A stretch of 64,000 bases of DNA from Nemertoderma westbladi. Taxonomy: Eukaryota; Animalia; Xenacoelomorpha. This document shows, one piece after another, positions 31,417 to 61,053 of the stretch; within the stretch, counting starts at the first letter, position 1; each line of letters begins with the position of its first letter. The DNA is taken from positions 92,072-156,071 of the forward strand of contig JAUCBJ010007177.1 of NCBI GenBank assembly GCA_032718475.1, read 5' to 3'. The position numbers were made by a program, and so were the translations under genes. The notes below the pieces were generated by a model. It did no database searches. It saw only the letters and a program-made list of their open reading frames with translations, and was not told the DNA's origin.

Positions 31417-33618
31417 GGAGACACTGACTGGGAGGTACAGCCCCACCTAGAGACACTGACTGGGAGGTACGGCCCCACCTAGAGAGACACTGACTGGGAG
31501 GTACAGCCCCACCTAGAGACACTGACTGGGAGGTACGGCCCCACCTAGAGACACTGACTGGGAGGTACGGCCCCACCTAGAGAGACACTGACTGGGAGGT
31601 ACGGCCCCACCTAGAGACACTGACTGGGAGGTACAGCCCCACCTAGAGACACTGACTGGAAGGTACGGCCCCACCTAGAGACACTGACTGGGAGGTACAG
31701 CCCCACCTAGAGACACTGACTGGAAGGTACGGCCCCACCTAGAGACACTGATTGGGAGGTACGGCCCACCTAGAGACACTGACTGGGAGGTACGGCCCCA
31801 CCTAGAGAGACACTGACTGAAGGTACAGCCCCACCTAGAGACACTGACTGGGAGGTACGGCCCCACCTAGAGACACTGATTGGGAGGTACGGCCCCACCT
31901 AGAGTCACTGACTGGGAGGTACGGCCCCACCTAGAGACAATGACTGGGAGGTACAGCCCCACCTAGAGACACTGACTGGGAGGTACAGCCCCACCTAGAG
32001 ACACTGACTGGGAGGTACAGCCCCACCTAGAGACACTGACTGGGAGGTACGGCCCCACCTAGAGACACTGATTGGGAGGTACGGCCCCACCTAGAGACAC
32101 TGACTGGGAGGAACGGCTCCACCTAGAGACACTGACTGGGAGGTACAGCCCCACCTAGAGACACTGTCTGGGAGGTACAGCCCCACCTAGAGACACTGTC
32201 TGGGAGGTACGGCCCCACCTAGAGACACTGACTGGGAGGTACGGCCCTACCTAGAGACACTGACTGGGAGGTACAGCCCCACCTAGAGACACTGACTGGG
32301 AGGTACGGCCCCACCTAGAGACACTGACTGGGAGGTACGGCCCCACCTAGAGACACTGACTGGGAGGAACGGCTCCACCTAGAGACACTGACTGGGAGGT
32401 ACAGCCCCACCTAGAGACACTGACTGGAAGGTACGGCCCCACCTAGAGACACTGACTGGGGGGTACGGCCCCACCTAGAGAGACACTGACTGGGAGGTAC
32501 GGCCCCACCTAGAGACACTGACAGGGGGGGGGGGGGGGGGTGGGGGCGGCCCCACCTAGAGACACTGACTGGGAGGTACGGCCCCACCTAGAGTCACTGA
32601 CTGGGAGGTACGGCCCCACCTAGAGACACTGACTGGGGGGTACGGCCCCCACCTAGAGAGACACTGACTGGGAGGTACGGCCCCACCTAGAGACACTGAC
32701 TGGGAGGTACGGCCCCACCTAGAGACACTGACTGGGAGGAACGGCTCCACCTAGAGACACTGACTGGGAGGTACAGCCCCACCTAGAGACACTGACTGGA
32801 AGGTACGGCCCCACCTAGAGACACTGACTGGGGGGTACGGCCCCACCTAGAGAGACACTGACTGGGAGGTACGGCCCCACCTAGAGACACTGACTGGGGG
32901 GGGGGGGGGGGGACGGCCCCACCTAGAGACACTGACTGGGAGGTACGGCCCCACCTAGAGTCACTGACTGGGAGGTACGGCCCCACCTACCCACCTAGAG
33001 ACACTGACTGGGAGGTACGGCCCCACCTAGAGACACTGACTGGGAGGTACAGCCCCACCTAGAGACACTGACTGGGAGGTACGGCCCCACCTAGAGACAC
33101 TGACTGGGAGGAACGGCTCCACCTAGAGACACTGACTGGGAGGTACGGCCCCACCTAGAGACACTGTCTGGGAGGTACGGCCCCACCTAGAGACACTGAC
33201 TGGGAGGTACAGCCCCACCTAGAGACACTGACTGGAAGGTACGGCCCCACCTAGAGTCACTGACTGGGAGGTACGGCCCCACCTAGAGAGACACTGACTG
33301 GGAGGTACGGCCCCACCTAGAGACACTGACTGGGAGGTACGGCCCCATCTAGAGACACTGACTGGGAGGTACGGCCCCACCTAGAGACACTGACTGGGAG
33401 GTACAGCCCCACCTAGAGACACTGACTGGGAGGTACGGCCCCATCTAGAGACACTGACTGGGAGGTACGGCCCCACCTAGAGACACTGACTGGGAGGTAC
33501 AGCCCCACCTAGAGACACTGACTGGAAGGTACGGCCCCACCTAGAGTCACTGACTGGGAGGTACGGCCCCACCTAGAGAGACACTGACTGGGAGGTACGG
33601 CCCCACCTAGAGTCACTG
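31417..33618. repeat. 32-bp minisatellite, left part (about 69 units)
   Basis: Unit CTAGAGACACTGACTGGGAGGTACGGCCCCAC, with +AG (34-bp) and poly-G variants. Confidence 0.97.
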
Positions 33619-35787
33619 TGATAAACAACCGCGACCTCTATACTAACAGCAGAACTGTTGAACAGACCAATACCCGTTAATATCCTTCTGCCAACCTAAT
33701 AAGCTCTCGCCTATCCAATAAGACACAAAGACTGCTCTACTGTTAAGTAAAGGGGATCAGGAGTGTGCTATTACTAAATTGTAAGGGTTGCTAAATACAA
33801 AACCGCTACTTACCGTTAGATGGCGCTAATCTGCCGTCCACTAATATATTTTACTAATTTTACACAACTCCTGCAAAATCGCTTGTTCCTTTCTCTACCG
33901 ATTGCTCAATAGAGAGCTAACTGTTCGAATCTATGAGCCACGCGGGAATAACCAAAACAATAAACCCGAGTCGGCTCCCTAAGCTTACTTAAGACGAGTG
34001 CGAGAGGCCTTGCACTCAGAGTATTCTTACGCCTAATTTTATCACTATTGAAGCACGCTATTACCTACGTCTTTCTAATCGCGAATACTGGGGTTTCTCT
34101 AACGTAATGTGTGAATGCGAGAATATTTAAAAATATCAAAATGGTACAGTATCTGTTTCTACGTGGATAATACCACCCCGAGTCTAAAACTGCCCGCGAC
34201 TGGCTTTAGGCCAGCAAAATTACTAGCGTATCGTGCGTACCGAATAGTGCGTTCTAGCTGATTGCCCGCTAATGCAAATAACCGCTCAGCGTGAATAGTT
34301 TACAGTACACTAATTATTACCTTAGCTACTCTCCGCTATGCTGCGTACTAATTCTTAATTTTTTACTAATTAGTTACAGTCACAAATATTTAACAGCGTA
34401 CTAATTACTAAGAGTTCCAGAATACGTAATTCTAATTTATCACGCAACAGGTTTCGATAGTAATAGCCTAATTTGCCGTATTACTTTGACCTAATCAATA
34501 ACTAATTATTGTAACTAAGAAATAGAAATCAATCAAAGGAAAAGAGCGCCTATCTAAACATTCGTAATCTTAGGCACACTTCAATAACACACCAATCAGC
34601 GTTAGAAATCACAGTTTACAATTATGCAATTCACTACTCGTACTCCACACTCAACGTTGTAATACGCGCAGGCCTCTCCCGGGTACATCTAGGATTCCTA
34701 ACTAACCCAATTCCTGCCCCCCTAATACTAAATAGAGACAAAACCTGGATCATCAGCCCCCTAGATACTGTACCGGCGATCGGTCTGCGTGCCGCAGTGC
34801 AAGTTACCCGCCCGCAACGGTGACTCTGGCCAGCGTTGCCCGCTTTGAATCCTCCGCTCTCTCCTAGTCGCTCAACCCCCCGATGCGCCCACCGCCCACT
34901 GGCACCTTAGCCCTTCATGATGCTAATAGCTACCGTAGCGGCGCATGCAAATCACAAAGTCTGACAGTCTCAGGAATCCCTTAGGATTATTGCGCAGAAA
35001 AGAATCACATAGAACCATTAATCAAAAGGTAGAAATCATAGTTCAGTTGTAATTAGCAGTAATCGAAGGAATTAATTGAGAAACACAAGCAAAGTAATCG
35101 CACTAGCAAATCATTCCAAGAAATTAATCAAAATTAGCAAATTGCAGAAAATACGATATCCTAATACAAAATTAGAGACAGCTCAGCAAGTAAAATGTAA
35201 CAGGGGTGTGTCATGTGATAAAGCATGAACATATGAACAAATATATGAACAACAAAGGCCCTACCGGCACACCGCCAATTTATAGGTGATCCGGATGGGG
35301 TGATGCAATAAGGTGACTCAATCGCTCTCCCATTGGCTCTCCAGTCCATGCTAGCATTAAACCAACCTGGAAGCAGTTAATCCAATAAGGAGACCGGATT
35401 GTAGCCCTATGCCCTCAAATTATTACCATATATGGTAATGGATCACGTCTCTGGCTGCTGAATGGCCAGGACAGCGTCCCTATATGCTAGCCCTATCAAA
35501 CTAATATCAGCAAGCACAGAATCCAGGGTCCGAATAAACTTGCTACCCTGGGACTATCTACATATCCTAATACAAAATTACGTAGGTAGGGCTACATACT
35601 ATACAAAATGAATGGATGCAAAATATATGGGCGTTTTAACTTCCTTACCTAAATACCACTGCGTTATTATGCCTTATCTAAAATATCATGCTGCACAACG
35701 GACTAATATTACGTACAGTATAACGGACTAATATTGCATACTGCATAACGGACTAATACTGTGGATACAGCGCCATATACCGTAACA
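33619..35787 (-). repeat. 3' LTR (2169 bp)
   Basis: Plus strand reads TGATAAAC...CCGTAACA. Same length as 50201-52369 and identical wherever spot-checked. Confidence 0.96.
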
Positions 35788-35795
35788 CCGCTCCA
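35788..35795 (-). other. Short, atypical polypurine tract (TGGAGCGG) directly before the 3' LTR
   Basis: Minus strand ...CCCTTGGAGCGG|TGTTACGG is in the PPT position but short and interrupted by a C. Confidence 0.45.
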
Positions 35796-36276
35796 AGGGA
35801 AATCATACAATGTTTCCCTCCAATTGTAGAAGAGTATAAGGTGATGTATACAAAACAAAATAAATTTCTTCCAACCAATCTAAATAACATAATAATTCTA
35901 CTATTTACAAATATTGCCATAGATATTGCATAATGAATTTACATACAAATTAAAATTACAAAATATTATCTCTCTCACTGTTTAACGATTATTACATACA
36001 AATTAAATTTACAAAATATTGTTTCTCGTTCATTCTTACTACATAATGATTACTACATACAAAATCAAATATAAAATTTTGCTAGGGCAAGTGAAAAGAG
36101 TAAGCCAAACCCGCAGGTTTGTCTCCCCAATCACTTCCTTCGCCTCTTTCATAATATAAATTCAAATAACTCAACTAGTGTATATGAGTCTAGTCGAAGA
36201 TTTTCAAATGCTACAATATACATCAGAGCGACGATGATGTATATATCTAGAGTCTGTCGCCCTGTGCCATAATGTA

Positions 36277-39200
36277 TTATCGACCCGCTCCTGGGTTCTT
36301 TGGGCTCGCTCCTCTCTTTCGCCCCCTTCCCAGATACACTAATCTACCTCTAGTCGACTCCGTTGACGGCGTCCGTGAGGCGTCACTCCCCGGAACTCGG
36401 CTCGAACTTCTCCCTCGGCCTCGTCCCAATTGTCGCGCTCCCGTGGTCGCTTCCGCCAACTCTTCCTTCTGCAGTTGCACACGCGCTTTCTCAGACGCCC
36501 CCTGCGCCTTGCGCTGCAACCTCTGTGCTTCTATAATTGAATGATAGTGGTCGTCCTTGACTTGACGCTTGTCTTGGACCCCTCCTCCTGGTTCTTTCCG
36601 CGAGCCTTGAGCTCCAGCGGTCGTCGCTGTGGTCGCTGCGATCCTTTGCTCTTGTATCCTCTCAGCGGTCAATGAACCCACTGGCACATGAGTTAACAAG
36701 AATTCGTTGCGGTACTGTATAGCCGCCATCCTCCAATCTCCTCGCGCGCGTACCACCTTTCTAGTCTCCGTAAATACACCCTTCGTAATGCGATCGCAAA
36801 TGGCAACGAAGTTCCATGTGTACTTATTGTCCATGTTCAATTGTCTGAAGTACTCTCGAACTACGATAACTCCAGTGTTCTGTGGAAGGTCTTGAGCAGT
36901 TAGGATGAGCTCCTGATATTGTGGTAGCGATTGTAGATATGGCTCGTACGCAACATGCGATGGGTCTACCGCCCAAAACCCATATCCCGCTTTAAATGGT
37001 AACCAACGCATCTGCGCTTGAATATGGTAATCCGCCACACTCTCCCACTTATCTAACATCTCCCGAAGTAGGTTAGCGCTATGGTTTTGAAAGGAATCAT
37101 CTCGCAGCTGACATCTCGCGCTACGATGTCCCTTTACCCCGCAATATCCGCATTGAGAAATGAAGACGGTGCACGTATGAAACGAATGGTCGGTCTCATT
37201 ACACCAACGACAGACCTTATGCGCCGCCTCTATTACCGCGTCGCACGACTTTAGATTGTGCCTTGTGCTGCCGCACAATTTGCACCTACGCGCTTGTGGA
37301 AACCAGGCCCTCTCGTATATGAGGTCTCCAATCAGTTTCGCACTTCCTTCCTTCCCAATGTCTAATACGATGTCGTCCTCTCCGGTCAACGGTTGTCGAT
37401 CCGGAACAAAGTAAACATCCTCGCCCTTGTCCTCTATCTCCAATATTTCCTCCCGCGTTCGTTTCGGATATGTCTTCTCCACCGGAAGATCTACTCCGAA
37501 CACCTCTACTAACGTTTCCGGCCAGCCCTCCTTAACAGGTCTATCAGCCTCCGAGTGGAAGGGAGTACCAAACCCGCGGGTTTGATTCCCGAACCACTTC
37601 TCCAAAGCTTCTGGCGTTGGATATTCCATCGACGGTCGGTCTCCCAAATCTCCGATGTTCTGTCGATATACTCCTTCGAATATCGCTAATCCTCTCCTCA
37701 CCATCGACGTATTCTCTAACGATTGGTTGAAGAACGGGGTTAAGAAACGCTTCATCACGTCGGATTGGATTCCCCCTTTCGAGCGAACGTATTGATCTCC
37801 TCCGAATACCAATGGATGACGCTTCAAAACTCGCGCAACGATATCCGCTAATAAACAAGTCACCGTGTTCGACTCAAGCACCAAATAATATTGTAGCGAC
37901 GCACGGGGTGGCGCGCAAATGTTCCAATACACTAACGCTTGCCGCTTGAAGTGGGATTTGAACTCCGCTCCCGGTGGCGTGTTGTATTCGCCATACGCCT
38001 CCTCGTACTTCTTCTGCGTCTTCAACTTAAAGTCCCAATTATACAACAAGTGTGCTATAAAGCCCATACCAGTCTTGGCAGAGTTGGGATACTCCCTATA
38101 AATTCCAATATCCTGTGCCCATAGCAACAATAGCTTGGTGTCGACAAACGGTCTCGGCAATCTATCTTCCAGATCAGTCATGGCGTTGAAGTCGCTCTCC
38201 AAATCGCTCTGGACTCCCGATCCCACCTTGACGTAATCTTGGTTGAGAATAGCCTCTCTAACCTTCTTTGGTAACATCCTGGCGTCGATACGCTCCGCTC
38301 CGTGCATACCTCCTCGCCTGCATACCTCCAAAATCTGTTCCCTAGGATCCTTCCCCTTCCGATATTGTGTCGTTATGATGGGCTCCGGTCTCTCTCGATC
38401 CGCCCTCACACGCATAAACACATGAGTCACACCATCGGCCGCACGAATCTGAATACACTTGCTGGTCAAGCATTCTTGATGGGACCCTCCTTCATTGTCG
38501 TAGAACATCACCCTCCAATCTTGCAGTGATTCCTCCGTTTTCCTCCACTGACGCTGAATCTCATCTGATGGGGTCCACATGCGCTCGATCGCCTTGTGGT
38601 CATCATATCGGGTATAAGAACCCTTCCTCCTCAGCCACGTCTGGTCTACCTCCTCGTCATCTGGGAATGTAGCCACCGCGACCCATACCTTGATGTACTT
38701 ATCCAACCATCCGAATAACTTACTCTCCTTCCCCGGAGCTCCAATCTTATCCAACGTGTCATAATCTGTGATCTGCATTGGGACATCACGCAAGAACTTC
38801 GCGCATAAAACTTCCCGTAAACAGTCAACGTTCCAATGGTCCGCCATTCTTACCATCGGCAAGAATCGTATCGCTTCTCGCGACTCCGGATGATCTACTA
38901 ATATCGCAGGTTCGGTGCCGTCGGAATAATACACCGGTCCGGGTTGAGATACGACCTGTGGAACAAATCCGGTCACTCTCCTCGTCTCCTCTTGATGTCT
39001 ATCCGCGGTCTTATTATACTCCGCTATCCTGTTCTCAAATAACTCCTTCGCCTTCGCCGCTCGCTCCTCCTGCCGCAACGCGTCCATGTCGTCCTGATGC
39101 TCAGGCGTGAGGCTTCTCACTCGGTGAGGTGAAGTAAACGCAGTCCAGGGACTCGAGAGCTCCAAACCCGCGGGTTTGGTACCCGAGTCCCGCGCCGCTT

Positions 39201-39951
39201 CGCGCCGCGCCTCTAGATCCTTATAGGCTCGGTACAGCGAAATGGCCGCTGCCGTCTCTATCAAACTGGGTGTCGAACAGGGTTTAATCTCCGTATACGG
39301 ATCTAATGTCGTAACGGTCGGCGTAATGGGTCTCGGAGGTCGCTTTCCGCTGAAGTCGATACTGATCATCGGGTTGCTCATCGGGTAACCTCCCTCGTTA
39401 TATCTAAGGAATTGGTGAGCTGGACATCGCGTTAATATCGGTTCCGGATGTTGCTCGTCTAATCGGTCGGGAATCGCCACGTCCTGTTTATTCATGCATT
39501 CACCACACTTGTAGAAGAGCTTGTATACGCTGAAGACTTTCGGCGTCTCCTGATCCTCGCCTCGAGTCCTCCGATACAGATGCATTCCGTCGAACTGGTC
39601 TCGGACTGCAGGTAGAGGCTCCTCATGTCGTAAATACATATTCATATGGTATAGTCGTGCGATTTCCTCGTCCGGATCTGCGCTAATGTCGCACACGTCC
39701 AAAGCAAAGTCGTAGGGATACCGCGTGCGATACTCTCTCCGCAAGACTTCCATCCGGTCCCCCAATGCTCTCATTCTTTCTCTCCGTAATTCTTTATCAT
39801 AACTTGGTTTATACTTCCCGTTCAGCTCCATCACGGACCGCCCATGGTAGTAAACGTTAGAGTTTTTACATCCTGGTCGCGCGAATGGTAGCTCCGCCTC
39901 CTCTCTGGCAGTAAATCCTCTGCGCGGTTGCGCTCTAATATCCCTCTCCAT
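36277..39951 (-). CDS. Extra retrotransposon ORF, 1224 aa: DnaQ/DEDDy (WRN/EXD/Mut-7-like) 3'-5' exonuclease domain, three CCHC zinc knuckles and an RG-rich tail
   Basis: ExoI-like VMFYDNEG (D485, E487) followed by CIQI; LPKKVREAILNQDYVKVGSGVQSD (D583); FVDT; GMGFIAHLL; W...QYYLVLES (Y689xxxE693). Knuckles CKLCGSTRHNLKSC, CRWCNETDHSFHTC and CGYCGVKGHRSARC (aa 890-947). C-terminal GRGRGR and GRGRKRG. The ORF is certain; the domain call is by motif recognition. Confidence 0.8.
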   Translation of the reverse strand: MERDIRAQPRRGFTAREEAELPFARPGCKNSNVYYHGRSVMELNGKYKPSYDKELRRERMRALGDRMEVLRREYRTRYPYDFALDVCDISADPDEEIARLYHMNMYLRHEEPLPAVRDQFDGMHLYRRTRGEDQETPKVFSVYKLFYKCGECMNKQDVAIPDRLDEQHPEPILTRCPAHQFLRYNEGGYPMSNPMISIDFSGKRPPRPITPTVTTLDPYTEIKPCSTPSLIETAAAISLYRAYKDLEARREAARDSGTKPAGLELSSPWTAFTSPHRVRSLTPEHQDDMDALRQEERAAKAKELFENRIAEYNKTADRHQEETRRVTGFVPQVVSQPGPVYYSDGTEPAILVDHPESREAIRFLPMVRMADHWNVDCLREVLCAKFLRDVPMQITDYDTLDKIGAPGKESKLFGWLDKYIKVWVAVATFPDDEEVDQTWLRRKGSYTRYDDHKAIERMWTPSDEIQRQWRKTEESLQDWRVMFYDNEGGSHQECLTSKCIQIRAADGVTHVFMRVRADRERPEPIITTQYRKGKDPREQILEVCRRGGMHGAERIDARMLPKKVREAILNQDYVKVGSGVQSDLESDFNAMTDLEDRLPRPFVDTKLLLLWAQDIGIYREYPNSAKTGMGFIAHLLYNWDFKLKTQKKYEEAYGEYNTPPGAEFKSHFKRQALVYWNICAPPRASLQYYLVLESNTVTCLLADIVARVLKRHPLVFGGDQYVRSKGGIQSDVMKRFLTPFFNQSLENTSMVRRGLAIFEGVYRQNIGDLGDRPSMEYPTPEALEKWFGNQTRGFGTPFHSEADRPVKEGWPETLVEVFGVDLPVEKTYPKRTREEILEIEDKGEDVYFVPDRQPLTGEDDIVLDIGKEGSAKLIGDLIYERAWFPQARRCKLCGSTRHNLKSCDAVIEAAHKVCRWCNETDHSFHTCTVFISQCGYCGVKGHRSARCQLRDDSFQNHSANLLREMLDKWESVADYHIQAQMRWLPFKAGYGFWAVDPSHVAYEPYLQSLPQYQELILTAQDLPQNTGVIVVREYFRQLNMDNKYTWNFVAICDRITKGVFTETRKVVRARGDWRMAAIQYRNEFLLTHVPVGSLTAERIQEQRIAATTATTAGAQGSRKEPGGGVQDKRQVKDDHYHSIIEAQRLQRKAQGASEKARVQLQKEELAEATTGARQLGRGRGRSSSRVPGSDASRTPSTESTRGRLVYLGRGRKRGASPKNPGAGR

Positions 39952-40708
39952 TATATTACGCGTATATACATATATATATATCCCAATAAGTGCCGTTACG
40001 TAACCAACTACACTGTGGGTAAATCAGTTAGATGTCGCCGAAGGACAGACCTCCCGAACCCCCCCCGCCTTCCAGCAGTTCAGGTTCGACTCTCTAGATC
40101 CCGTCTCTTCCTAACTAACTATCCTCTAACCTATTCCCATGCATAGCGCAAAAACTTTGGAGATAAACTGGCCGTGACCAACTCACTTTTTGATGCCCAA
40201 ACTACTCCCATTACTCCTACTAAACTACAGTAGTTAGAAAGGACCATAGTCACAATACTCGACTATACCAAACCCACAGGTTTGATAATCGAACATCACA
40301 CATCCTGCAAACTACTGAGTGGGGTCCATGTACGCCTCTGGTGCTACTAACCTTTAGCACCTTAGTTGCACTGTTGGCACCAATCTGTGGAAGTTGCTAA
40401 ACTCAATTTACACTCCTACGTAATATAGCCGTCACCATGGTTTCTAAATGCTATTTTCCAGGTTTCACGACTTTTCAAATTACTGTTTATCTATAGACGA
40501 ATTCTAAAACGCGTCTATATACAGCGTCTGGAATTGTCTTGGGTTCACTTTTCTAATTTTAAAATTTTTAATTTTCCAAAATTTTGAAAATAAAATTTTG
40601 TTTGATACCCACCAGACAAAACTCAATGCAAATCACCACAACCCCGCTCCTATGCATTTCCTTGTATTTGCATACGAGGAATGCATACGAAGTGAGTTGC
40701 GTCCAACA

Positions 40709-41590
40709 CTAACTCTGTTTTGAGGCAGGAGACAAATTATAATCTCCCGTCTCGATACGTGTCTCCTCTAATAACACAATATCTTGGACCGGTCGGTCCA
40801 AGGTGTGTAAACCTTTAGTTTTACACTTTTTTGGGTGCGGACACTTGCACCTAATTTTCACAGTGACTGTGCGCACTATGTTTTGCACGTCTGGGTGTGT
40901 GTGCAAGATCACTCCAGTCTCCCAATACTTTCTCTTGACAATCGGTTCGGTTATCAACACGTAATCTCCCCTTTGGAGACTCCGAACCGTTTTGTACCAC
41001 TTTGTTCTGGTAGATATGGTGGGAAGATAGTATTCCCGCCAATATTCCCAGAATGTGTACGCCACAAACTGTGTTACTTTCCAGCTTTTACGACTATATA
41101 GGTCGGCACTAATGGGTTCTGATGCCGGCACAAGAAATGCTGGACTCTGCATTAGCAAATGATTCGGCGTTAATGCAACACCGTCTGGCAACATAGCTAT
41201 CGGCCTCGAGTTTAGGGTATGCTCGATTTCAATGAAAGCTGTGACCAGTTCGTCGTCGGTAAGTTGTTTGTTCACAGGCAACGTTTTGGCAATGGCCTGC
41301 TTCACAGAGCGAACTAAACGCTCCCAACTTCCTCCTCTCCAAGGACTTTCTGGAGTATTGAATCTCCACTCAACTCTTTGCGGCAAAAGTGCTGCAGAAA
41401 TTTCCTTATTCTGTGCTGCTTTATGAGCCGCGTTCAACTCGCTATTCCCTCCGACAAAGTTTGTACCCTTGTCAGAGTAGAATGCCTTTACTAGTCCTCT
41501 CCTGGCCATAAATCTCTTTAAGGCCAGGAGCAGAGATTTGGTCGACATGTCTGCCACACGCTCAATGTGTATGGCTCTACTCGCCATACA
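40709..41590 (-). pseudogene. C-terminal part of the Bel/Pao integrase (DDE core and C-terminal domain), out of frame with gag-pol
   Basis: CMASRAIHIE...LKRFMARRG...SDKGTNFVG...PWRGGSWERLVRSVK...LNSRPI...LTPNHLL...FWEYWREYYL...RPVQDIVLL are typical Bel/Pao integrase motifs. Confidence 0.9.
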
Positions 41591-44500
41591 TCCATCGCTT
41601 GTGGGTCAGCCGTCCACTCTTTGCTTCAATCGGACCAAAACAGTCCACCCCTGTATTCGTAAAGGGTGGGTCATATGCCTGCACTCTCGCTTCCGGGAGT
41701 TCAGCCATCTCCTGTTCCAATACTCTGGCGTTCACCCTCTTGCAAACCAGACAGGCGTCGTACATAGTGCCGACTGCCCTGCTTGGCTGCAATAGAATGA
41801 ATCGCTGTCTCGCTGCCGACAAACAGTGTAACCTTCCCGCGTGATGCAACCTCTTATGTATATCCCATAGAATCGCTCTTTGCAATTCCATCGGGTAACT
41901 AGGGATTATCACTGGGAATCGAAACTGTGAGTTTATGTCGACAGTCTGGATTCTCGATCTATGACAAATTAAACCCTTATGGATTAATGGACTCCATTTT
42001 CTAAGGGGTTTATAGAGAACTGGTCGTTGAGCCGATAATAGATGGAATTCTTTAGGGAAGGCACACATTTGATAATATCTCAAATGCTTTAATTCCGCTT
42101 GATCAATCTCATCCTCTGTCAGAGGTTGTTTCAATTTCCGAATTCGCTCACTATTGGTGCTCAATGGTTCTCTCAAATGTTTCGAATGTTTTATACAAAG
42201 GTACGAAACGTATCGGCTTAACCACGCAGTTCTTTTACAAATTGTCAGCCAAGAGGCAGACGAATTTAGTAATTTGTCATAAATACTGCATGACTCTAAT
42301 GCCAGCGACGGTTGTCCGCTAACTAATGGAAGTTTCGAATCCAAACCCGCAGGTTTGGAAACCAAGGGATCCATTGTGTCGGTCATTTTCTGTCCGTCAC
42401 TTACCAATTGTGACTCCAGTTTAGTCTGTAAGGGTGGTTTTATGTCGTAACTTACCCTTCCTGACCTAGTAGTCACGTAAGTCTGTTGGTCTGACAGGTC
42501 TCCGGGCCGCTCCAATGACTCTTCAGGCCGCTCCAATGACTCTTCAGGCCGCTCCAATGACTTAAGTTTGGCTTTAGACTTTGACTTAGAGACTTTCTCC
42601 ACCTTGACTTCTGCATCTTCAGGCATCGGATTGGTCACTATCTTTAGTCGCTCTGGCCAATGTTCCTGTGTCCTCGTTAGAAAATCAGGTCCATGCAACC
42701 AAAACTCCTGCGACTCTTCCTGACAGAATTCTGCCGGCATTACACCTCTCGAAGTTATGTCGGCCGGGTTCAACACTCCCGGACAATGTCTCCATTGTTC
42801 CTTCGTCGAAAAGTCAACGATCTGAGCGCGTCTATTGGCCACAAATGTCTTTAGTGCAATATTGTCGGCCGCAATGTATACTAACACCAAGGATGCGTCC
42901 GTCCAATAGAATAAGGTCAATGTCGTGTCTAACTCCTCAATTATTTGCTTACTTACCTCGACTGAAACTACAGCCACCTGTAACTCTGCACGAGGGACAG
43001 TCATGTATTTGACCGGCATTGTCTTTGATCTAGAAGTCACAAAGGCCGTCTCAAATTTGTCCTGACTTACCTCTCGGCAAAGGTAGGCTACCATACCAAA
43101 GCCGGTGTCACTTGCGTCACTAAATAGGTGGAGTTCGAGATCAGCTGGAAATACCAGCTGATTCGGAAAGTAGGATCGGGGCACATCTATATTTTTCAAT
43201 AGATGCAACTCGGCTTCCCACTCTCTCCACTGCTTTGCATGTATAGGAGATATTGGTTCGTCCCACTCTAAGTCGGACAACCAAATTTTCCTCATGCACG
43301 CTCGTGCCTGTAATATAACCGGACTGATAAAGTTCATCGGGTCAAATAGTCTACTTAGTGTCGATAAGCAAATTCTCTTTGTCAAAACTTTGTCTGGGCT
43401 ACTGGGCTCAAATCTAACTCTTACCTGGAACTTATCCGAATTCGGATTCCAAGCGAGTCCCAGTACTCGCGCCATGGGGATTGGTTCTACCCCCAATTCT
43501 ATGTCTCCGCTCCCGCGATCTTTTACCGGGAACGATTCTAATAGGGCCTCCGAATTAGTAGTGAACTTGGTCAGAGGAAATCCCCCTGTAGCCAAGCACT
43601 CCTGTAGGCCGTGAGCCACTTCTATGGCTTGTTCCGCCGTGTCCTTGGACACCAATCCGTCGTCCATGTAGAAGTTTCTCAGGATGGACTCGATAACCTC
43701 TACTGGGTACTTACCAATCTGGGCTGTTGCCGTTTTCTTTAAAACGAACAGCGTGCCATTCGGACTATCGCGGGCGCCAAATATCCTAACGTACATTTGG
43801 TATGTAACCACTGGGCCGGATAAGTCTTCATTCTCGTACCAGAGAAAGCGAAGGCTATCCTGGTCTGCCTTACAGGCTCTTACCTGGTGGAACATCGCCT
43901 CGATGTCACAAGTAAATGCGAATCGCCGCTGTCTAAAACGCAACAGTATTCCAATCAAATAGTTATTCAGGTTGGGACCATCCATCAACTCTGAATTCAG
44001 GGACATACCTCTATAGACTGCTGCGCAGTCGTTGACTACTCGGACTTTGTCTGGCTTGTCAGGGTGAGTCACATAGTGGTGTGGAAGGTAATAAGTCTGG
44101 TCTGTCACTAAGTCAGGGTCCTCTACCTTCCCAGCAAATCCCTTGGCGAAATAGTTGTTGATCTGGGCGCAATACTTCTCCCTAATGCCTGGATTCCTCA
44201 ACAACCGAGCCCTTACTCCGTTCAATCTTTTCAAGGCTAAGTTGTAGTTGTTCTCCAACTTAGGAGGTTGTCGACGCCACAACATTCCAACTTCAAAATG
44301 TCCAGTCGGTAGCAGACGTATGGTGTCTTCCATCATCTCCAGCGACCGTTTCTCATCAGTAGACATGGCTAGGTCATATCCACCGGGTTCCATTGCGTCC
44401 CTGTCCAGCCATTCGACGGTTCTAGCTCCTGTCTCGAGGTCCTGGCGTATCAATTCCTTCTGTAGCTCCTCCTCACTGTATTGGAAAATGTCGAGGTCTC

Positions 44501-47500
44501 GATATTTAGCCACTTGACCCTCCACTATGTCTGTATAAGTCAAAACGTTAGTCAAATAGGTAGCGTGGGCCGCTGAACCAGACCCACGGGTCTGATAACA
44601 GTAGTCCTCGGGTTCACTATCTGTCCGGTCGTTATGAAGTGGTTCCGACAACCTAACATTATCGGGAATCAACTCCTCGTCCGACTCGCTAAAGTCACTA
44701 TAGTGGTCAATACAGGTTCTCCTAAACTCGTCTATGTCTGGTGGTTCTACTAACGGTGGTTGAGTTATAGGCTGTAATTCATCGTATCTGTTCATTGGCT
44801 TGTCGCCACCTGTAAACTCATAAGACATGGGTACTCTTGTATACCAACCTAGTATGGTCCTATGGGCATGTGGTCCATTGACATGCGGCTCAGCTGGTCT
44901 CGTTTCCCATATCTGGTGTGCGATCAGCTGTTCTGCACCAATTAACATGGAAACATTCCTATAACCTACCTGGTGTCTGGGTATCCTGAGCTTGTCAAAA
45001 TACTCCTGTGCTATGGGACTCATCGGCGGCACCTTACCTAACTGCCTGCCGAATCCCTTCATAGCTAGACACTTAAATCCGTCCAATGGCAAAGCTTTCC
45101 GTTCTTGTCGAGTGTGTTGGTCTCTCGGAAGTAGGGAATCTAGTTCTACCGAAATTCTGTGTCCCTTGAGGTCTCCTACCCCGTGCATAGACTTCAACTC
45201 TATTTGGATCTCCTCGGCGTCCTGGAAGCTAGAAACGGCTCTCGCCACTTCCTCGTCGATATAAGATAATGTGGACGCAGTGTCCAACATCACATATATT
45301 CGCTTCGATCCCTTATCGCCAGTGAGTTTCACCGGAATCACGCTAAATATTTCCGACGTGGCCGATGATAAATACGTCCGCGCGCTGGTCGATGAACTAT
45401 CCGCGGTGAAACCTTGGCAGGTCACTTCTCTCGCGCTCGACTCGCCATCCTCGTCCGACGAACCTGGTTGGTAACCATCGTCCTGGATGCCAGTGTACGT
45501 ATTCCTCCTTATCGATATGGGTTCTTTGCTCCCCTTCCTGTGAGGATTTCGCTGTAAGTAACGGTCCGTTGGGGTGTGGAAATCCGCATGTAGCAACTTG
45601 TGATGTAGTCTGCCGCATTCCATGCATCCGTCCTTGCTGTTCGGGCACTGCCGCCGTACATGGCCTGGCGCAAGACATGCCCAACAGGTGTCCAACGTCC
45701 GCACTTGAACTCTTCTCTGTTCCGAATTTAATTCTTTGAACCGTCTGCAACTATCTAACTTATGGTCGTCAGATCTTACCTCCTTTAGTAAACAGTATTG
45801 GCAACCTACAAATCCATCCGGCAACTCCTGTTGCTTTAACCTAGGTCTATCTAACCGCTCACCTGACCATACTCGCGAGTCTGATCTAAAGGCTGGGGTA
45901 TTCGAATTATATCTGTCTACTGAGTTAAATGTCACAGTGGTCCTGTCATCGTCAAAACTTACCATAGACTTACCGGTAACAGGTTTAGACTCTCTCATAT
46001 TCTCTTCTGAGAAGTTTGATTTCATCTCTGCTACTGCGTCTGTGGCTATCATGTCATGAATATGCTGAAGTGTCAACACCTTACCTTGGCCCTCCAACTT
46101 ATTCTCTAATTTGCGCCATTTCTGTCTGTAACGCATGTTTAAACGTCTTATTACGCTTTTCAAAACTTCGGCGTGATCACCATGATGAGGTAGATTCACC
46201 GTCCTCAAGATGTCCAATGCGTTCGAAATAGCGTTCGCTAAGTTCAACAGCTCTAACGGAGTTGTAATCCTTCCGCCCTTACCCAAGTCTTCTACTATCG
46301 ACTGTGCCATCTTGGTTTTATTCCCGTAGATGTCACTAAGTGTCTTCATCGCTAACTCGAATGCTCTTTCGTTGCCGACGAAGTTATCAGCAATGGCTCT
46401 AGGTTCTCGATGGAGCATCTGAAGCAAATAGTTGAACTTCTCGTTGGGAGTAAAGGTGCTGTTGGTTAGCTGCTCGTCGACATAGGTTTTGAAGGTCCTC
46501 CAATGTTTGTGGTTGCCCATAAACTTCTGGGGTTGTTGCGTCGGCAGTCCTTGCCTAGCAGCAAACTTACCTATGTCTCTAAGGGTTGCGTCGTTCCGGG
46601 TTAACAAATGGTTTAGTTCCGCAGGGTTATTAAGTCTGGTCCTTTCCCGGTGGTTCCAACTTACCTGCTCCGCGTCGGTCCTTCTTTCCTTATAGTTTCG
46701 GGACTTCTGACGTCTCATTTCTTCCTCTTCATCGCTTGACTCAGTGTCAGTCCTTAGCGCTCGCGATGGTTTGCGCGCCGAGGCCCTGACCCAAGCATCC
46801 TCAATAAATTTCTCTGCCGAATTTTCGAAATTGGGATTATGAATATTCGGGACAGGCGTCCTTACCTGAGGTCTATGTGGTATAGTCTCCTCCGATATGC
46901 GTACTCGTTGACTAGGCTGGACTTTATCTAACTCAGGCCTGCTGGGATTAGAATTACTTCTTACCTGGGCTGCTTCCTTTAACCGTAGGTTGCTAAGCAT
47001 GTCCGTTATAGGTTGGATGTGCGGCGATATAGCTTGCGCTAAACTAGCACTTAACTCATCCCTCGTAATAAATTCCTGGCTAGGGTTCTGTTGTATAGTC
47101 GGCTCTATCTGAGTAATCCGCTGTCTCTCATATGATCCCTCTTCCGGTTTAACCCGGAAGTTCTCCGTCGAACTGGGTCGGCGCTCCGTCCCCGTATTCC
47201 AAACCCGCGGGTTCGGTTCGCCCAATACTCGGCCCGTCGGAGTTTCTCTAAACTCTTCATTGTCTCGTTCGGTATACAGTGGTGCGGTGTTCCGATGACG
47301 TAGATCCTGCGCGATAGGTGAAGCACTAATACCAACTGGCGTGCGATATGTAGAGAATGGTTTAGCGATCCGTGTACTCGTAATAGCTGGACCAGGTATA
47401 GGAATTCTGGTCGTCGTCGACTCGCGTATGGTCGGAGTTCTCGCTTCCTGTTCGGCCTTCTGCAGTGCGAACAGTTCTCGCAACTCAGTCCCTACACTCG

Positions 47501-48773
47501 CCCCACATTCTTCGATCATTCGCATCCCCTTCTCGGCGATTTCGTTCGCCTTCCTAGTCCGTTCTTCGCTCTCTAAACTTAATCTCGCACTTTCCAACTG
47601 CGCCAGTTTACGTTCTTCTTCCTCCCTTGCTCGTCTCGCTGCGCCCTCTTCTTCTACACGCGCCTTCTCTTCATACAACGCCCGTCTCTCCCTCTCGCGC
47701 TCAAGTTCGCGCTCCTTGCGCTCGCGTTCGAGTTGGAGTTCGTATTCCCTGTGTTCGCGTTCCTTCTGTTCGCGTTCGAGCTGGAGTTCGCGTTCCTTGC
47801 GTTCGCGTTCCTTCTGTTCGCGTTCGAGCTGGAGTTCGCGTTCCTTGCGTTCGCGTTCCGCTTGCTCGCGCTTACCTTTCTCTTCCAACTCTCGCAACTT
47901 TGCGTCTAACTTACGTGTTCGCTCCCGTTCCCGCTCGGCTTCCTTCCGTGCTTCCGATGCACACAAAACTTCTGCCTGTTGTTCGTCTAGTCGGCGTCTT
48001 CTCTCCTCTGCCGAGTTGTGAGAAACAAGGGATCTAGCACATATTACCTTACCTCGCGCGTGACTAACCTGGGAATCGCCGCTGTCTCTAGATGCGTCAT
48101 CAGGTGGAGTCAACGTCCTCTGTTGGATGTTCTCCGTCGTCGGTAGCACCTGACCTGGTACCACCACTCCATTCTGCATCAGCCAGCTAGTAACTTCCCT
48201 TTGATACCTGCGCTCCTCCTTGTCTTGGATCTCTTCTCGCTCCACTAACTCTCTCAACTCTGCGTCACTCACTTGAGTCGCCTGCGCTTGTGATGCCCAT
48301 AGCAGCCAGTTCTCCGTCCTAACTCGTCGGAATCGCTCTGATAACTCGCGGTGTTCCAACAAGGCTGCTAAAACCCTGTCGTAAATCCTCGTTGCTACGT
48401 CGCTTGACTGAGACTCTACTGCCTTCTTCGCTAGGACTGCAAGCTCCTCCGTCTGCTTGAATAACGCTGAGTTATATCCTCTTCTAATCTCTACTAACCC
48501 TTCCCGTCCGATGTTCGCTGAGTCGGCTAACATCTTCCTTACCTTGTCCGTCGTCCGAGTTATATGTCCGGCGTGCGCGCGAAGTTTCTTTTTTATCGCG
48601 ATATCGAACTCTCTATCACTCACCTGACTTACGCTCGGTGGACTTGAAGGATTATTTCGGGAACTACGGGTACTCCTTACAGCCGTCGGGACCACGGCAC
48701 TTACCATACCCACAGGTCTGGAAACCGGGCTCCGGGCTCTCGCTTCTGCTACACTACCCTCCCTATCACTCAC
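41577..48773 (-). CDS. Bel/Pao Gag-Pol polyprotein (coiled coil, Gag, three Cys/His knuckles, aspartic protease, RT, RNase H, integrase N-terminus); start codon uncertain and frameshifted inside integrase
   Basis: Gag PQKFMGNHKHWRTF...EKFNYL; knuckles CWACLAPGHVRRQC and CMECGRLHHKLLH; protease LDTAS (about 45273-45284); RT YLPHH...KVRVV...GPNL...DIEAMFHQV...YMDD (43659-43670); RNase H FSDAS...PRAEL...WTDA...NPAD; integrase H-H-CLVC and GVDCFGP. Confidence 0.95.
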   Translation of the reverse strand: MSDREGSVAEARARSPVSRPVGMVSAVVPTAVRSTRSSRNNPSSPPSVSQVSDREFDIAIKKKLRAHAGHITRTTDKVRKMLADSANIGREGLVEIRRGYNSALFKQTEELAVLAKKAVESQSSDVATRIYDRVLAALLEHRELSERFRRVRTENWLLWASQAQATQVSDAELRELVEREEIQDKEERRYQREVTSWLMQNGVVVPGQVLPTTENIQQRTLTPPDDASRDSGDSQVSHARGKVICARSLVSHNSAEERRRRLDEQQAEVLCASEARKEAERERERTRKLDAKLRELEEKGKREQAERERKERELQLEREQKERERKERELQLEREQKEREHREYELQLERERKERELERERERRALYEEKARVEEEGAARRAREEEERKLAQLESARLSLESEERTRKANEIAEKGMRMIEECGASVGTELRELFALQKAEQEARTPTIRESTTTRIPIPGPAITSTRIAKPFSTYRTPVGISASPIAQDLRHRNTAPLYTERDNEEFRETPTGRVLGEPNPRVWNTGTERRPSSTENFRVKPEEGSYERQRITQIEPTIQQNPSQEFITRDELSASLAQAISPHIQPITDMLSNLRLKEAAQVRSNSNPSRPELDKVQPSQRVRISEETIPHRPQVRTPVPNIHNPNFENSAEKFIEDAWVRASARKPSRALRTDTESSDEEEEMRRQKSRNYKERRTDAEQVSWNHRERTRLNNPAELNHLLTRNDATLRDIGKFAARQGLPTQQPQKFMGNHKHWRTFKTYVDEQLTNSTFTPNEKFNYLLQMLHREPRAIADNFVGNERAFELAMKTLSDIYGNKTKMAQSIVEDLGKGGRITTPLELLNLANAISNALDILRTVNLPHHGDHAEVLKSVIRRLNMRYRQKWRKLENKLEGQGKVLTLQHIHDMIATDAVAEMKSNFSEENMRESKPVTGKSMVSFDDDRTTVTFNSVDRYNSNTPAFRSDSRVWSGERLDRPRLKQQELPDGFVGCQYCLLKEVRSDDHKLDSCRRFKELNSEQRRVQVRTLDTCWACLAPGHVRRQCPNSKDGCMECGRLHHKLLHADFHTPTDRYLQRNPHRKGSKEPISIRRNTYTGIQDDGYQPGSSDEDGESSAREVTCQGFTADSSSTSARTYLSSATSEIFSVIPVKLTGDKGSKRIYVMLDTASTLSYIDEEVARAVSSFQDAEEIQIELKSMHGVGDLKGHRISVELDSLLPRDQHTRQERKALPLDGFKCLAMKGFGRQLGKVPPMSPIAQEYFDKLRIPRHQVGYRNVSMLIGAEQLIAHQIWETRPAEPHVNGPHAHRTILGWYTRVPMSYEFTGGDKPMNRYDELQPITQPPLVEPPDIDEFRRTCIDHYSDFSESDEELIPDNVRLSEPLHNDRTDSEPEDYCYQTRGSGSAAHATYLTNVLTYTDIVEGQVAKYRDLDIFQYSEEELQKELIRQDLETGARTVEWLDRDAMEPGGYDLAMSTDEKRSLEMMEDTIRLLPTGHFEVGMLWRRQPPKLENNYNLALKRLNGVRARLLRNPGIREKYCAQINNYFAKGFAGKVEDPDLVTDQTYYLPHHYVTHPDKPDKVRVVNDCAAVYRGMSLNSELMDGPNLNNYLIGILLRFRQRRFAFTCDIEAMFHQVRACKADQDSLRFLWYENEDLSGPVVTYQMYVRIFGARDSPNGTLFVLKKTATAQIGKYPVEVIESILRNFYMDDGLVSKDTAEQAIEVAHGLQECLATGGFPLTKFTTNSEALLESFPVKDRGSGDIELGVEPIPMARVLGLAWNPNSDKFQVRVRFEPSSPDKVLTKRICLSTLSRLFDPMNFISPVILQARACMRKIWLSDLEWDEPISPIHAKQWREWEAELHLLKNIDVPRSYFPNQLVFPADLELHLFSDASDTGFGMVAYLCREVSQDKFETAFVTSRSKTMPVKYMTVPRAELQVAVVSVEVSKQIIEELDTTLTLFYWTDASLVLVYIAADNIALKTFVANRRAQIVDFSTKEQWRHCPGVLNPADITSRGVMPAEFCQEESQEFWLHGPDFLTRTQEHWPERLKIVTNPMPEDAEVKVEKVSKSKSKAKLKSLERPEESLERPEESLERPGDLSDQQTYVTTRSGRVSYDIKPPLQTKLESQLVSDGQKMTDTMDPLVSKPAGLDSKLPLVSGQPSLALESCSIYDKLLNSSASWLTICKRTAWLSRYVSYLCIKHSKHLREPLSTNSERIRKLKQPLTEDEIDQAELKHLRYYQMCAFPKEFHLLSAQRPVLYKPLRKWSPLIHKGLICHRSRIQTVDINSQFRFPVIIPSYPMELQRAILWDIHKRLHHAGRLHCLSAARQRFILLQPSRAVGTMYDACLVCKRVNARVLEQEMAELPEARVQAYDPPFTNTGVDCFGPIEAKSGRLTHKRWMYGE

Positions 48774-49018
48774 CTCTGTCCGACTGCTATACAGTCCTTC
48801 CTTACAGTAGCGGTAGGGGATCCTAATACTATTACTTGAGGTTGTTGTTCTTCCTCACTAGTCACTGTCTCGTCCTCCTGTTCACTTACGTCAGCGTCGC
48901 TCGCTGCGTCGTCATAGTCGGCATTGTCATCAACAGTAATGTTTACGCTATCGTCAGTCGGCGGTCCAGCCGCCGTCTCATAGCTGTCCTCTAGTGCCTC
49001 TTTGTCTGAGACACTCAT
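48770..49018 (-). CDS. 82-aa acidic leader ORF overlapping the gag start (GTGA overlap); either the true N-terminus of gag or the first exon of a spliced mRNA
   Basis: ATG-initiated, D/E-rich. Its TGA overlaps the GTG that opens the 2398-aa ORF, and the junction reads AG|GTGAGT. Confidence 0.55.
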   Translation of the reverse strand: MSVSDKEALEDSYETAAGPPTDDSVNITVDDNADYDDAASDADVSEQEDETVTSEEEQQPQVIVLGSPTATVRKDCIAVGQR

Positions 49019-50190
49019 AGTCTAAATAATGTTTGCCTTCCGGCAAAATATCTCACAAAATTCGAGATATAATTATAATTTAACCGAAACACGGTCAAAT
49101 TATTTGTCAAATATCAGTTGGTCCAAATGTCAAATAAATTCGCAATGCAATATTGTGAATTTAATGGGGTATATAGTTATAGCAAATACTAACACAATAT
49201 TTAAACAAAAATATTATTCTATAGCTACTATATAGTATTAAATACCGGTATAGCACAAAATAACTTTGAATCTAATACAAAATATTCAAAATATACTTGC
49301 CGCCCGAATATTTCTAATTTTATATATAGCTCTAATCAACGTAATTTTAATTTCAAATATTATATGTATCCACTAGCGCGTGGCTACATCTTCGGGTTGC
49401 GACTCTCTCTAACTCTCTCTCTAACTTGAGCGATTCAAAACCATGGCCGGCTAAACCTAAATATCCTAACTAATAAATTGAGTTCAGCTTCGCAGTTAAA
49501 CAACCGATAATTTTTTACTGCTTCCACAAACACACTGGTGCCAACAGAACAACTAACCTTGTTTGCTGTGAGATTCCACGTCCGCGTCCAAAGATTCAGG
49601 CCCTTCGCTGATTGCAAACCGAACCCGCAGACCCACACGAACCCCAAACTCAGAAGTCCCGTCTTGCCATGTATCTCCAGATGGTATAAAATAACTAAGC
49701 GGTTACCTAACATACCGGTACAAAACTCTAGAATTTTACAAAATAATTTTGACCGAAACTGAATTCTCGCAAACCTAGCTAATAATTTTCAAAAAAACTT
49801 ACTAATTACTGTTTGCCCTAAGGCCTAAGGAACTGCTGTATTCGCAATTAGCAAAACGTACTACCGTACATCCACTGTATGCAGTACAGTAAGTAAAACA
49901 GTACACCAACCTAACAGCCTAATGATACTGTATGTGGTACGGCAAAACAAATGTCCCTTCTACCGTACGCAGTAACAACAATCAGCCTAATGTACTACTG
50001 TACTATTGTACGCAGCCAGTGAATACAGTAATCTAAACTAACAGCCTAACAGAATATACTTAATGTTCTACCGTACGCTAGCCTATAGCCTACAGCAGAC
50101 GATCACGTGCTCCAATTTATTACTTAATACTGTGATACTACTTTCAGCCTAAGAATACACTATTGACCGCTGCAAGCAACAGCCAATAAA

Positions 50191-50200
50191 CGCGTATTAC
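50191..50200 (-). other. Putative primer-binding site GTAATACGCG, complementary to LTR-internal sequence rather than to a tRNA CCA end
   Basis: Immediately follows the 5' LTR end (TTATCA|GTAATACGCG). Its exact reverse complement on the RNA strand is at 51241-51250 and 34659-34668. Confidence 0.6.
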
Positions 50201-58142: not shown

Positions 58143-58793
58143 CTAGTTCCGTTTCGCTTTCTTACGATGTCCACCTACAACACCGTTACAATGTAAATCC
58201 TTAGACCTTTTCTTTAAATCTTTCTTCTTTCGAACTTTACTAGAATTCCTCCCAGATTCTATAGGAATATCTCCCTCTGTCCCCTCCAACACAACTGTGC
58301 AACCGCCGGTTATATCAGCTTGTAACACAGTCCGAGTAACTTTATCTTTACGATACCCCAGAATACTGTCTATATCGCTTTTACTCGCCCGCGATAAATC
58401 TTTACTTTTCGCGAACTTTGTATAATGAATTCGGGATTTAGACGACTTAGATCGCGCTTCCAAACTAATTATAGACGGCAAGCCATCCCCATGGCTAGAG
58501 TCCGATATGTTATTAAGGGAATTCAATAGATTGGCGAAGTTATCCTGGTGTTGCATCCAGTTATCTACTGCGTTATCGGAATGACCCAACCCCGCTCTGT
58601 CTCTCTTATACGCCACATGCACGTGTTCTGTTCTCCCTGTACGACTGACACCCAATCCGTCTCCCTCCTTCCAACCCATCTTCTCCAACAATCTCTGGCC
58701 GAGTTTACCTTTATCTGCCGTCCACGACGTGGTTTTGGGGGTCAGCACCCATTGACGGTCCGATTTACGCTTCGGTTCAGCCAACATTGCCAT
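58143..58793 (-). CDS. PINX1: PIN2/TERF1-interacting telomerase inhibitor 1 (PinX1/Gno1)-like G-patch protein, 216 aa, intronless CDS
   Basis: MAMLAEPKRK..W...W....KLGQRLLEKMGWKEGDGLG (G-patch)...GLG...DNWMQHQDNFANLLNSLN...SLEARSKSSKSRIHYTKFAKSKDLS...DIDSILG are diagnostic PinX1 blocks, followed by a basic tail. Confidence 0.9.
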   Translation of the reverse strand: MAMLAEPKRKSDRQWVLTPKTTSWTADKGKLGQRLLEKMGWKEGDGLGVSRTGRTEHVHVAYKRDRAGLGHSDNAVDNWMQHQDNFANLLNSLNNISDSSHGDGLPSIISLEARSKSSKSRIHYTKFAKSKDLSRASKSDIDSILGYRKDKVTRTVLQADITGGCTVVLEGTEGDIPIESGRNSSKVRKKKDLKKRSKDLHCNGVVGGHRKKAKRN

Positions 58794-60924: not shown

Positions 60925-61053
60925 GGACAATTCGGTCCCGGACAATTCGGTCCCAAAACACTAAATAAATGGGACCGAATTGTCCGGGACCGAATTGTCC
61001 TAGGACCGAATTGTCCTAGGACCGAATTGTCCTAGGACCGAATTGTCCGGTTC
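60925..61053. repeat. GGACCGAATTGTCC repeats in inverted and tandem arrangement (cluster 1)
   Basis: Two copies of GGACAATTCGGTCC followed by five of GGACCGAATTGTCC. Confidence 0.85.

Follow-up and report, generated by a model that had tools for sequence, protein, structure and literature searches.

A selected accessory gene with a predicted DEDDy exonuclease fold and zinc knuckles in a Bel/Pao retrotransposon of Nemertoderma westbladi

In a 64,000-nucleotide stretch of the Nemertoderma westbladi genome (assembly GCA_032718475.1, contig JAUCBJ010007177.1, positions 92,072 to 156,071 of the forward strand; hereafter the window, whose own numbering is used throughout), we found an 18,751-bp Bel/Pao long terminal repeat (LTR) retrotransposon that carries a second open reading frame (ORF2) encoding a protein of 1224 aa (P0001). 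ORF2 is almost certainly a selected Bel/Pao accessory gene for a protein of DEDDy fold, and it belongs to a gene family that is real, conserved and apparently undescribed in Bel/Pao elements. A first-pass annotation of the window, made from the letters alone, had described an uninterrupted 1224-aa frame between pol and the 3' LTR of a Bel/Pao element. Translation confirmed the frame, and each motif named in that annotation (DNE, KVGSGVQSD, YxxxE, three CCHC knuckles, a CGEC...CPAH cluster and an RG tail) was found in its place.

ORF2 lies between the end of the integrase (40709) and the 3' LTR (33619-35787), and its parts are the following:

36277..39951, minus strand: ORF2 (P0001), a stop-free frame of 1224 aa for the accessory exonuclease-knuckle protein
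39415..39507, minus strand: N-terminal CxxC...CxxH cluster (CGEC 39496-39507, CPAH 39415-39426), a possible zinc site
37816..38568, minus strand: predicted DEDDy-type 3'-5' exonuclease domain, aa ~462-712, with D485, E487, D583, Y689 and E693
37111..37284, minus strand: three CCHC zinc knuckles, aa 890-947
36904..37074, minus strand: family-conserved post-knuckle domain, aa ~960-1016, weakly conserved in this copy
36304..36429, minus strand: Arg/Gly-rich tail, aa ~1175-1216
40013..40031, minus strand: putative branch-point and splice-acceptor-like motif, 61 nt 5' of the ORF2 ATG, with an intervening out-of-frame ATG

The exonuclease motifs fall at 38491-38499 (DNE, aa 485-487), 38203-38229 (KVGSGVQSD, aa 575-583) and 37873-37887 (Y689..E693), and the last 54 residues contain five RG pairs and twelve arginines. 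In P0001 the knuckles and the post-knuckle domain together scored E 1.4e-10, and the domain by itself E 0.015. We found no transmembrane segment in ORF2, its top 19-aa hydropathy window being 1.34, and a Pfam scan of P0001 gave no match at E 0.1. With neither a transmembrane anchor nor homology to a viral fusogen, ORF2 is not an env glycoprotein, as the first-pass annotation had also held. Because ORF2 has its own ATG 760 nt downstream of pol, with an acceptor-like motif ahead of it, the sequence suggests that the protein is made from a subgenomic, perhaps spliced, mRNA; a 12-nt word common to the LTR and the ORF2 leader was put down to chance (115 of 1000 shuffles). The N-terminal 445 aa had no homologue among the fetched metagenome loci or in Pfam. 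Word-based homologue searches with P0001 and alignment A1 as queries returned no match, an atlas search with aa 875-1075 returned only knuckle look-alikes with scores <0.9, no relative of ORF2 was found in viral contigs, and phmmer matches to PDB entries (e.g. rotavirus VP4) were dismissed as noise.

A search of 1.84 billion representatives returned seven relatives of 514-715 aa, all of them with the knuckle block and six with a recognisable exonuclease domain, that of P0005 being degenerate. A profile built from six relatives without P0001 matched Egalitarian (E 0.0013), EXD2 (E 0.0016) and WRN (E 0.8). The 53-row family profile matched EXD2 at E 9e-13 and Trypanosoma brucei RNase D (TbRND) at E 6e-8, the latter match spanning exonuclease and knuckles; Egalitarian was unlisted up to E 1. 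Single-sequence AlphaFold2 (AF2) gave no confident model, with a predicted local distance difference test score (pLDDT) of 35; AF2 on the 53-sequence alignment modelled the exonuclease domain at pLDDT 78 with a predicted template modelling score (pTM) of 0.77. All 37 rows listed by Foldseek were DnaQ-like nucleases or proteins with such a domain, the best being EXD2 (E 5e-4), and both the PDB and the viral rows listed were, where named, DnaQ/RNase H-like nucleases. Structure comparison gave Z scores of 13.0 for NrnC, 12.8 for the WRN exonuclease (root-mean-square deviation 3.3, 168 aligned), 11.4 for both Nibbler and Egalitarian, 11.3 for EXD1 and 10.7-11.3 for TbRND, and DNA-polymerase proofreading domains were also among the close folds. 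AF2, Foldseek and the profile matches all agree with the fold expected at first pass, and the middle domain of ORF2 is predicted to fold as a DnaQ-like DEDDy exonuclease.

The Exo I motif could be aligned in two registers, one of which would make P0001 catalytically dead. Position-specific scoring based on relatives only gave D485 17.1 vs 1.7 for the runner-up site when 32 intact relatives were used, and 9.8 vs -0.9 with all 57; scores were poor for both registers when based solely on the 22 dead relatives. The register that would make P0001 dead takes HVFMRVR (aa 510-516) as Exo I; it came up in several MAFFT runs and was rejected by the same scoring. D485/E487, where the first-pass annotation had also put Exo I, is the best predicted register, and this D-x-E lies at the end of strand 1 (model strand aa 481-487). 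It implies an insertion of ~30 aa in P0001, modelled at low confidence. For Exo II, D583 aligns with the GS...D of the family. P0001 has acidic residues at all four catalytic sites and may have the metal-dependent 3'-5' exonuclease activity of DEDDy enzymes. Several points weigh against this assignment. The TM-scores from Foldseek reach only 0.23-0.43 when normalised by query length, which is modest, and the AF2 model and its register depend on the supplied alignment and are not independent evidence. Furthermore, Exo III reads Y689-x3-E693, with Glu instead of Asp, as the first-pass annotation had pointed out. The same Glu is found in P0004 and P0010, which group with P0001 (SH-aLRT 86, with a long-branch warning), and it is therefore a subfamily trait rather than decay.

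Selection on ORF2 was read from sister-copy variants in contigs of four runs from four studies, aligned to the element; the variant lists were chosen by support and not at random. In the two deep runs all 30 bins of the element were covered by tens of thousands of contigs, and the element family is therefore multi-copy. Among 40 variants listed element-wide (1,239 more exist), 17 fell in ORF2, and 15 of these were synonymous where 5.4 were expected. Of 40 variants listed for the exonuclease region (7 more exist), 34 were synonymous, compared with 13.1 expected and a maximum of 25 in 5000 draws. All 23 frequent variants in this region were synonymous, and none of the listed ones hit a catalytic codon. 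ORF2 is under purifying selection. Internally deleted sister copies occur and are rare, with low-depth contig joints that skip 36741-39145 and 38079-40064 and remove most of ORF2; ORF2 has roughly half the summed contig depth of pol, depth being no measure of copy number.

The gene is not confined to this element. A knuckle-motif scan of Joint Genome Institute (JGI) metagenomes yielded at least 120 loci (~300 estimated), most of them from few related accession series, and flanks were obtained for 80. Among these 80, an exonuclease-domain match was found in 58, a same-strand Bel/Pao integrase directly upstream in 40, and both in 37. Among the 34 loci with 1.5 kb or more of upstream sequence, the integrase was upstream in 30 and, by Pfam and profile, also in L022, and not in L008, L032 or L075. 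The ORFs are intronless, 500-1600 aa long, and present in dozens of elements, including relatives that assemble as ~10-kb circles; all 11 pol ORFs scanned had DUF5641 and 9 had Peptidase_A17. The exonuclease domains are diverse (62 of 66 differ by >10%), and since PF01612 is matched by only 1 of 53 aligned members, the family is invisible to Pfam. Exonuclease distances correlate with those of the reverse transcriptase (RT; rho 0.83, 0 of 2000 permutations, 20 loci), and the ORF is therefore inherited together with pol.

Catalytic residues vary across this family. Among 51 complete domains, all four acidic residues are kept in 26, Exo I is lost in 18 and 7 are partial; the dead-site members that have an RT form one clade (support 99). 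Among the close pairs listed (pN <0.25), dN/dS was 0.09-0.27 for dead and 0.09-0.22 for intact members, with dS near saturation; values for distant pairs were saturated and ignored. Because about one third of the complete relatives lack Exo I yet are under purifying selection, RNA binding may matter more than catalysis. The RT of the window element groups with echinoderm and cnidarian RTs (98), away from 24 ORF-bearing metagenome RTs, an arrangement that suggests cassette exchange between Bel/Pao lineages. The approximately unbiased (AU) test is compatible with a single clade of ORF-bearing pols (p-AU 0.146, 52 of 73 rows), and separate origins of these pols are unsupported.

Some metagenome loci differ in other ways. 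Twelve of the dead clade (L033, L034, L037, L038, L039, L060, L062, L065, L066, L068, L007 and L027) have, after ORF2 in the 3' untranslated region and ~50-110 nt 5' of the polypurine tract, a short tRNA-3'-end-like motif complementary to the primer-binding site (PBS), a possible long-range RNA pairing that was not seen in the DEDD-intact L029, L046, L053 and L076. In L051 (1-4767, minus strand) and L079 (1-1869, minus strand), ORF2 is followed on the same strand by an extra long ORF of at least 1589 and at least 623 aa, respectively, with no Pfam match. L008, L016, L032 and L072 read N-E-E-N at the catalytic sites; no integrase was found in 0.9-1.9 kb upstream of L008, L032 and L072, and L016 has no upstream DNA. 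This variant could be a domesticated gene or have a longer spacer. Finally, L047, L059 and L023 have a Bel/Pao pol followed by a knuckle ORF with no match to the exonuclease profile, where the domain may have been replaced or be too diverged.

The host element of ORF2 in the window is a Bel/Pao LTR retrotransposon, as the first-pass annotation had proposed, with these features:

33614..33618, no strand: left copy of the 5-bp target-site duplication, inside a 32-bp satellite
33619..35787, minus strand: 3' LTR, 2,169 bp, with TG...CA ends and the same sequence as the 5' LTR
40709..41605, minus strand: C-terminal part of the integrase (DUF5641, Pfam), in a frame that differs from gag-pol
41577..48854, minus strand: gag-pol ORF with DUF1759, knuckle, protease, RT, RNase H/Peptidase_A17 and integrase zinc finger; first Met 48707
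50201..52369, minus strand: 5' LTR, 2,169 bp
52370..52374, no strand: right copy of the 5-bp target-site duplication

It has paired TG...CA LTRs, a short target-site duplication, the Pao-type order of gag, protease, RT, RNase H and then integrase, and an RT that groups with Bel/Pao. The Pao-specific Pfam domains of pol are DUF1759, Peptidase_A17 (3e-37), Integrase_H2C2 and DUF5641, alongside DTAS and YMDD motifs. PF05380 was present in all 120 listed matches to the RT/RNase H region and the tree agrees; the nearest named relatives are Lytechinus and Diadema (sea urchin) and Rhopilema (jellyfish) proteins at 38-41% identity. The gag-pol domain set and order are those of this marine group of Bel/Pao (Belpaoviridae). 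Bel/Pao elements usually measure 4.2-10 kb, and their LTRs 0.2-1.2 kb (PMC3118150, in part); the present one is longer (18.75 kb), has longer LTRs (2.17 kb) and an enzyme-like second ORF, and lacks a tRNA-type PBS. The two LTRs are identical, without a mismatch, and flanked by the 5-bp duplication, and the insertion is therefore very young. The pol frame shifts within the integrase, at ~41577-41605, where one sister contig has a 14-letter gap; because of this match, the copy is likely non-autonomous though its ORF2 is intact. The polypurine tract (35788-35860) is atypical and preceded by a small hairpin. The element is inserted into a 32-bp satellite, which together with a 46-47-bp unit (~30 kb) occupies 1-29687, 31418-33618 and 52369-57976 of the window; the region is likely heterochromatin.

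The start of reverse transcription in this element may also be unusual. Three sites are concerned:

50190..50200, minus strand: PBS position, directly after the 5' LTR; it lacks TGG and can pair with LTR nt 1119-1129 through 10 Watson-Crick pairs and one G-U
51241..51250, minus strand: candidate self-primer in the 5' LTR, LTR nt 1120-1129
34659..34668, minus strand: 3' LTR copy of the 10-nt complement to the PBS position

A TGG-type site, called tRNA-type, is usual but not diagnostic for Bel/Pao and is absent here. Instead, the first 10 nt after the 5' LTR are perfectly complementary to LTR nt 1120-1129; such a complement exists for only 22 of 14,403 internal 10-mers, and the pairing was present in the minimum free energy (MFE) fold for all four start points tried. 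In published work, self-priming is predicted from a complement of at least 10 bp beginning 0-5 bp after the LTR (PMC6317226, in part); the element has 10 bp at offset 0, as in the Tf1 type. Tf1/Sushi-type self-primers likewise have at least 10 nt after the 5' LTR complementary to an intra-LTR site, without a tRNA PBS, and are described in Ty3/gypsy and some Ty1/copia lineages (PMC6317226 and PMC4600332, both in part), whereas the host here is Bel/Pao. We consider this a possible self-primer with a Tf1-like signal. No Bel/Pao precedent was found in the literature searched, with Repbase entries, subscription journals and supplements outside the search, and no tRNA gene was found in the 64-kb window; if real, the signal would add a third LTR superfamily to those known to self-prime. 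Ordinary TGG-type sites are present in relatives that carry the same ORF (L013 and L023, whose LTR ends were mapped, and ~20 loci by motif), and the exonuclease is therefore not tied to self-priming.

As to the role of ORF2, we tentatively favor an accessory protein that binds host small RNAs and trims or sequesters them, countering silencing. Few means of resisting silencing by PIWI-interacting RNAs (piRNAs) and small interfering RNAs (siRNAs) are generally credited to animal LTR retrotransposons. The ORF2 protein would be translated from its separate subgenomic (perhaps spliced) mRNA. By analogy with trypanosome RNase D, the knuckles would grip single-stranded RNA and pass its 3' end on to the nuclease site, and the targets would be host piRNA or siRNA precursors or else fragments of tRNA. 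Where the site is intact, the protein would shorten or degrade these RNAs, and dead-site members would sequester them or decoy host EXD-family factors. Overexpression of TbRND, which has the same layout of exonuclease and knuckles, lowers small guide RNAs (PMC7797062, in part). Catalysis was lost in one lineage and kept in others, and a role in binding RNA 3' ends against the host, or an escort role like that of Egalitarian, therefore fits better than primer processing or proofreading. Counting against a counter-silencing role, the 3' methylation of mature piRNAs protects them from nucleases of this type. In rotifers, small RNAs still map over elements with a DEDDy ORF3, and these elements have not clearly gained in copy number (PMC5408684). 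A more elaborate version, in which EXD-type nuclease and knuckles form a Bel/Pao small-RNA antagonist family, swapped between lineages and acting as active enzyme or decoy, and in which the present element is self-priming with the nuclease perhaps finishing the primer, is doubtful.

An appreciable but smaller probability goes to an escort or localization adaptor that would bind the RNA of the element itself through its nuclease-like surface and knuckles and protect it or route it to the germline, much as Egalitarian does, replacing the role of env in reaching germ cells and with catalysis secondary. The dead-site clade kept under purifying selection, the env position and the RG tail fit this reading, as does the relatives-only profile, which matches Egalitarian and EXD2 about equally (E 0.0013 and 0.0016). 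Egalitarian carries I-factor RNA without need of its catalytic residues (bioRxiv 10.1101/2025.08.03.668247, in part). However, all four acidic residues are kept in 26 of 51 complete domains across deep divergence, and with the larger profile EXD2 and TbRND rank above Egalitarian. Nor was a motif for binding motor proteins noticed in ORF2, though no search aimed at one was made.

A weaker candidate still is a part in maturing the RNA or the primer of the element itself. Here the transcript would fold back on itself, pairing LTR nt 1119-1129 with the PBS position and, following a downstream cut, the exonuclease would remove the 3' flap up to the edge of the duplex, yielding an RT primer; in relatives its task would be to trim tRNA primers or to rid particles of RNA. 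The lack of TGG, the exact 10-nt complement paired in the MFE fold, the agreement with the published definition (PMC6317226, in part) and the four acidic sites of this copy favor it, but ORF-bearing relatives have a TGG-type PBS and dead-site relatives persist. To our knowledge, Tf1 self-primes without such an ORF.

A proofreading factor that permits an unusually long genome, like the ExoN of nidoviruses, is improbable. Viral ExoN precedents exist (bioRxiv 10.1101/2021.02.01.429129, in part), the element, at 18.75 kb, exceeds the 4.2-10 kb common in Bel/Pao (PMC3118150, in part), and polymerase proofreading domains are close folds. This proposal of the first-pass annotation is nevertheless weakened by the ~10-kb circular relatives with the same ORF and by the loss of catalytic residues in many members, a whole clade being without catalysis; moreover, the ORF stands apart from pol, 760 nt downstream, and its knuckles point to RNA. 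A neutral passenger, that is a captured host gene without function, has next to no probability and is refuted by the selection tests: the rare internally deleted copies and the roughly halved contig depth (which is not copy number) are outweighed by the synonymous excess in sister copies, close-pair dN/dS well below 1, co-divergence with RT, and intronless ORFs in dozens of elements with integrase linkage in 40 of 80 metagenome loci, so that the one-off capture considered at first pass does not hold.

The closest published parallel is ORF3 of rotifers, and the premise that there was no precedent is overstated. A DEDDy ORF3 downstream of pol is known from bdelloid Juno and Vesta (Ty3/gypsy) and from Terminons (Rodriguez et al. 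2017, PMC5408684); the Terminon/rotifer DEDDy ORF also appears in PMC6431247 (in part). Like ORF2, it is an RNase D-like DEDDy protein encoded by a separate ORF past pol, in the env position, with no transmembrane segment and with one acidic D-to-E switch, and roles in 3'-end processing or silencing have been proposed for it, its function being putative (PMC5408684). The two differ in that ORF3 resides in Ty3/gypsy and Penelope-like elements and ORF2 in Bel/Pao; compared by description, the ORF3 motif is DEED vs D-E-D-E here, and no CCHC knuckles are reported for it. The same paper reports neither a catalytically dead clade nor a test for selection on the DEDDy ORF, and its text never mentions BEL or Pao as whole words (PMC5408684). 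In the literature searched, with Repbase, subscription journals and supplements outside the search, we found neither a Bel/Pao exonuclease ORF nor a retroelement DEDDy ORF with knuckles; term searches of the available portions of PMC11599104, PMC6238403 and PMC554778 gave nothing on such an ORF. The accessory gene is widespread and maintained by selection across dozens of Bel/Pao families, and its active and dead forms coexist in nature. It therefore allows the question raised by rotifer ORF3 to be tested directly, namely what purpose a 3'-5' exonuclease serves in a retrotransposon and which of the two, catalysis or RNA binding, is selected.

Among cellular proteins, TbRND (PDB 7c42/7c45; PMC7797062, in part) resembles ORF2 in having a DEDDy domain followed by tandem CCHC fingers, which bind RNA upstream of the 3' end (same source, in part). 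It differs as a cellular guide-RNA enzyme of ~350 aa with four fingers and neither a long N-terminal region nor a post-knuckle domain, and at 12-14% identity the two are likely parallel architectures. EXD2, the WRN exonuclease, Nibbler, Egalitarian and EXD1 have the fold and the Exo I-III motifs in common with ORF2, and some of them are non-catalytic RNA binders; they are host genes, however, with 6-15% identity to ORF2, none known with the block of knuckles plus domain, and compared with them P0001 has the ~30-aa insertion after strand 3. Dada DNA transposons of Laccaria and Ectocarpus also carry a DEDDy domain with four acidic residues, but there it sits inside the DDE transposase and is thought to act on DNA ends (PMC3706591, in part), whereas ORF2 is a separate ORF.

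Elsewhere in the window, an intronless G-patch ORF (58143-58793, minus strand; Pfam E 1.6e-14) lies beside the satellite; we take it to resemble the N-terminus of PINX1, and it is either a host gene or a retrocopy. Further on, 60109-60805, 60925-61949 and 62644-62771 contain, respectively, a 31-bp array, short repeats of 14-16 bp that occur in either orientation, and an inverted repeat of 61 bp without mismatch, which are possibly remnants of miniature inverted-repeat transposable elements (MITEs) or foldback elements.

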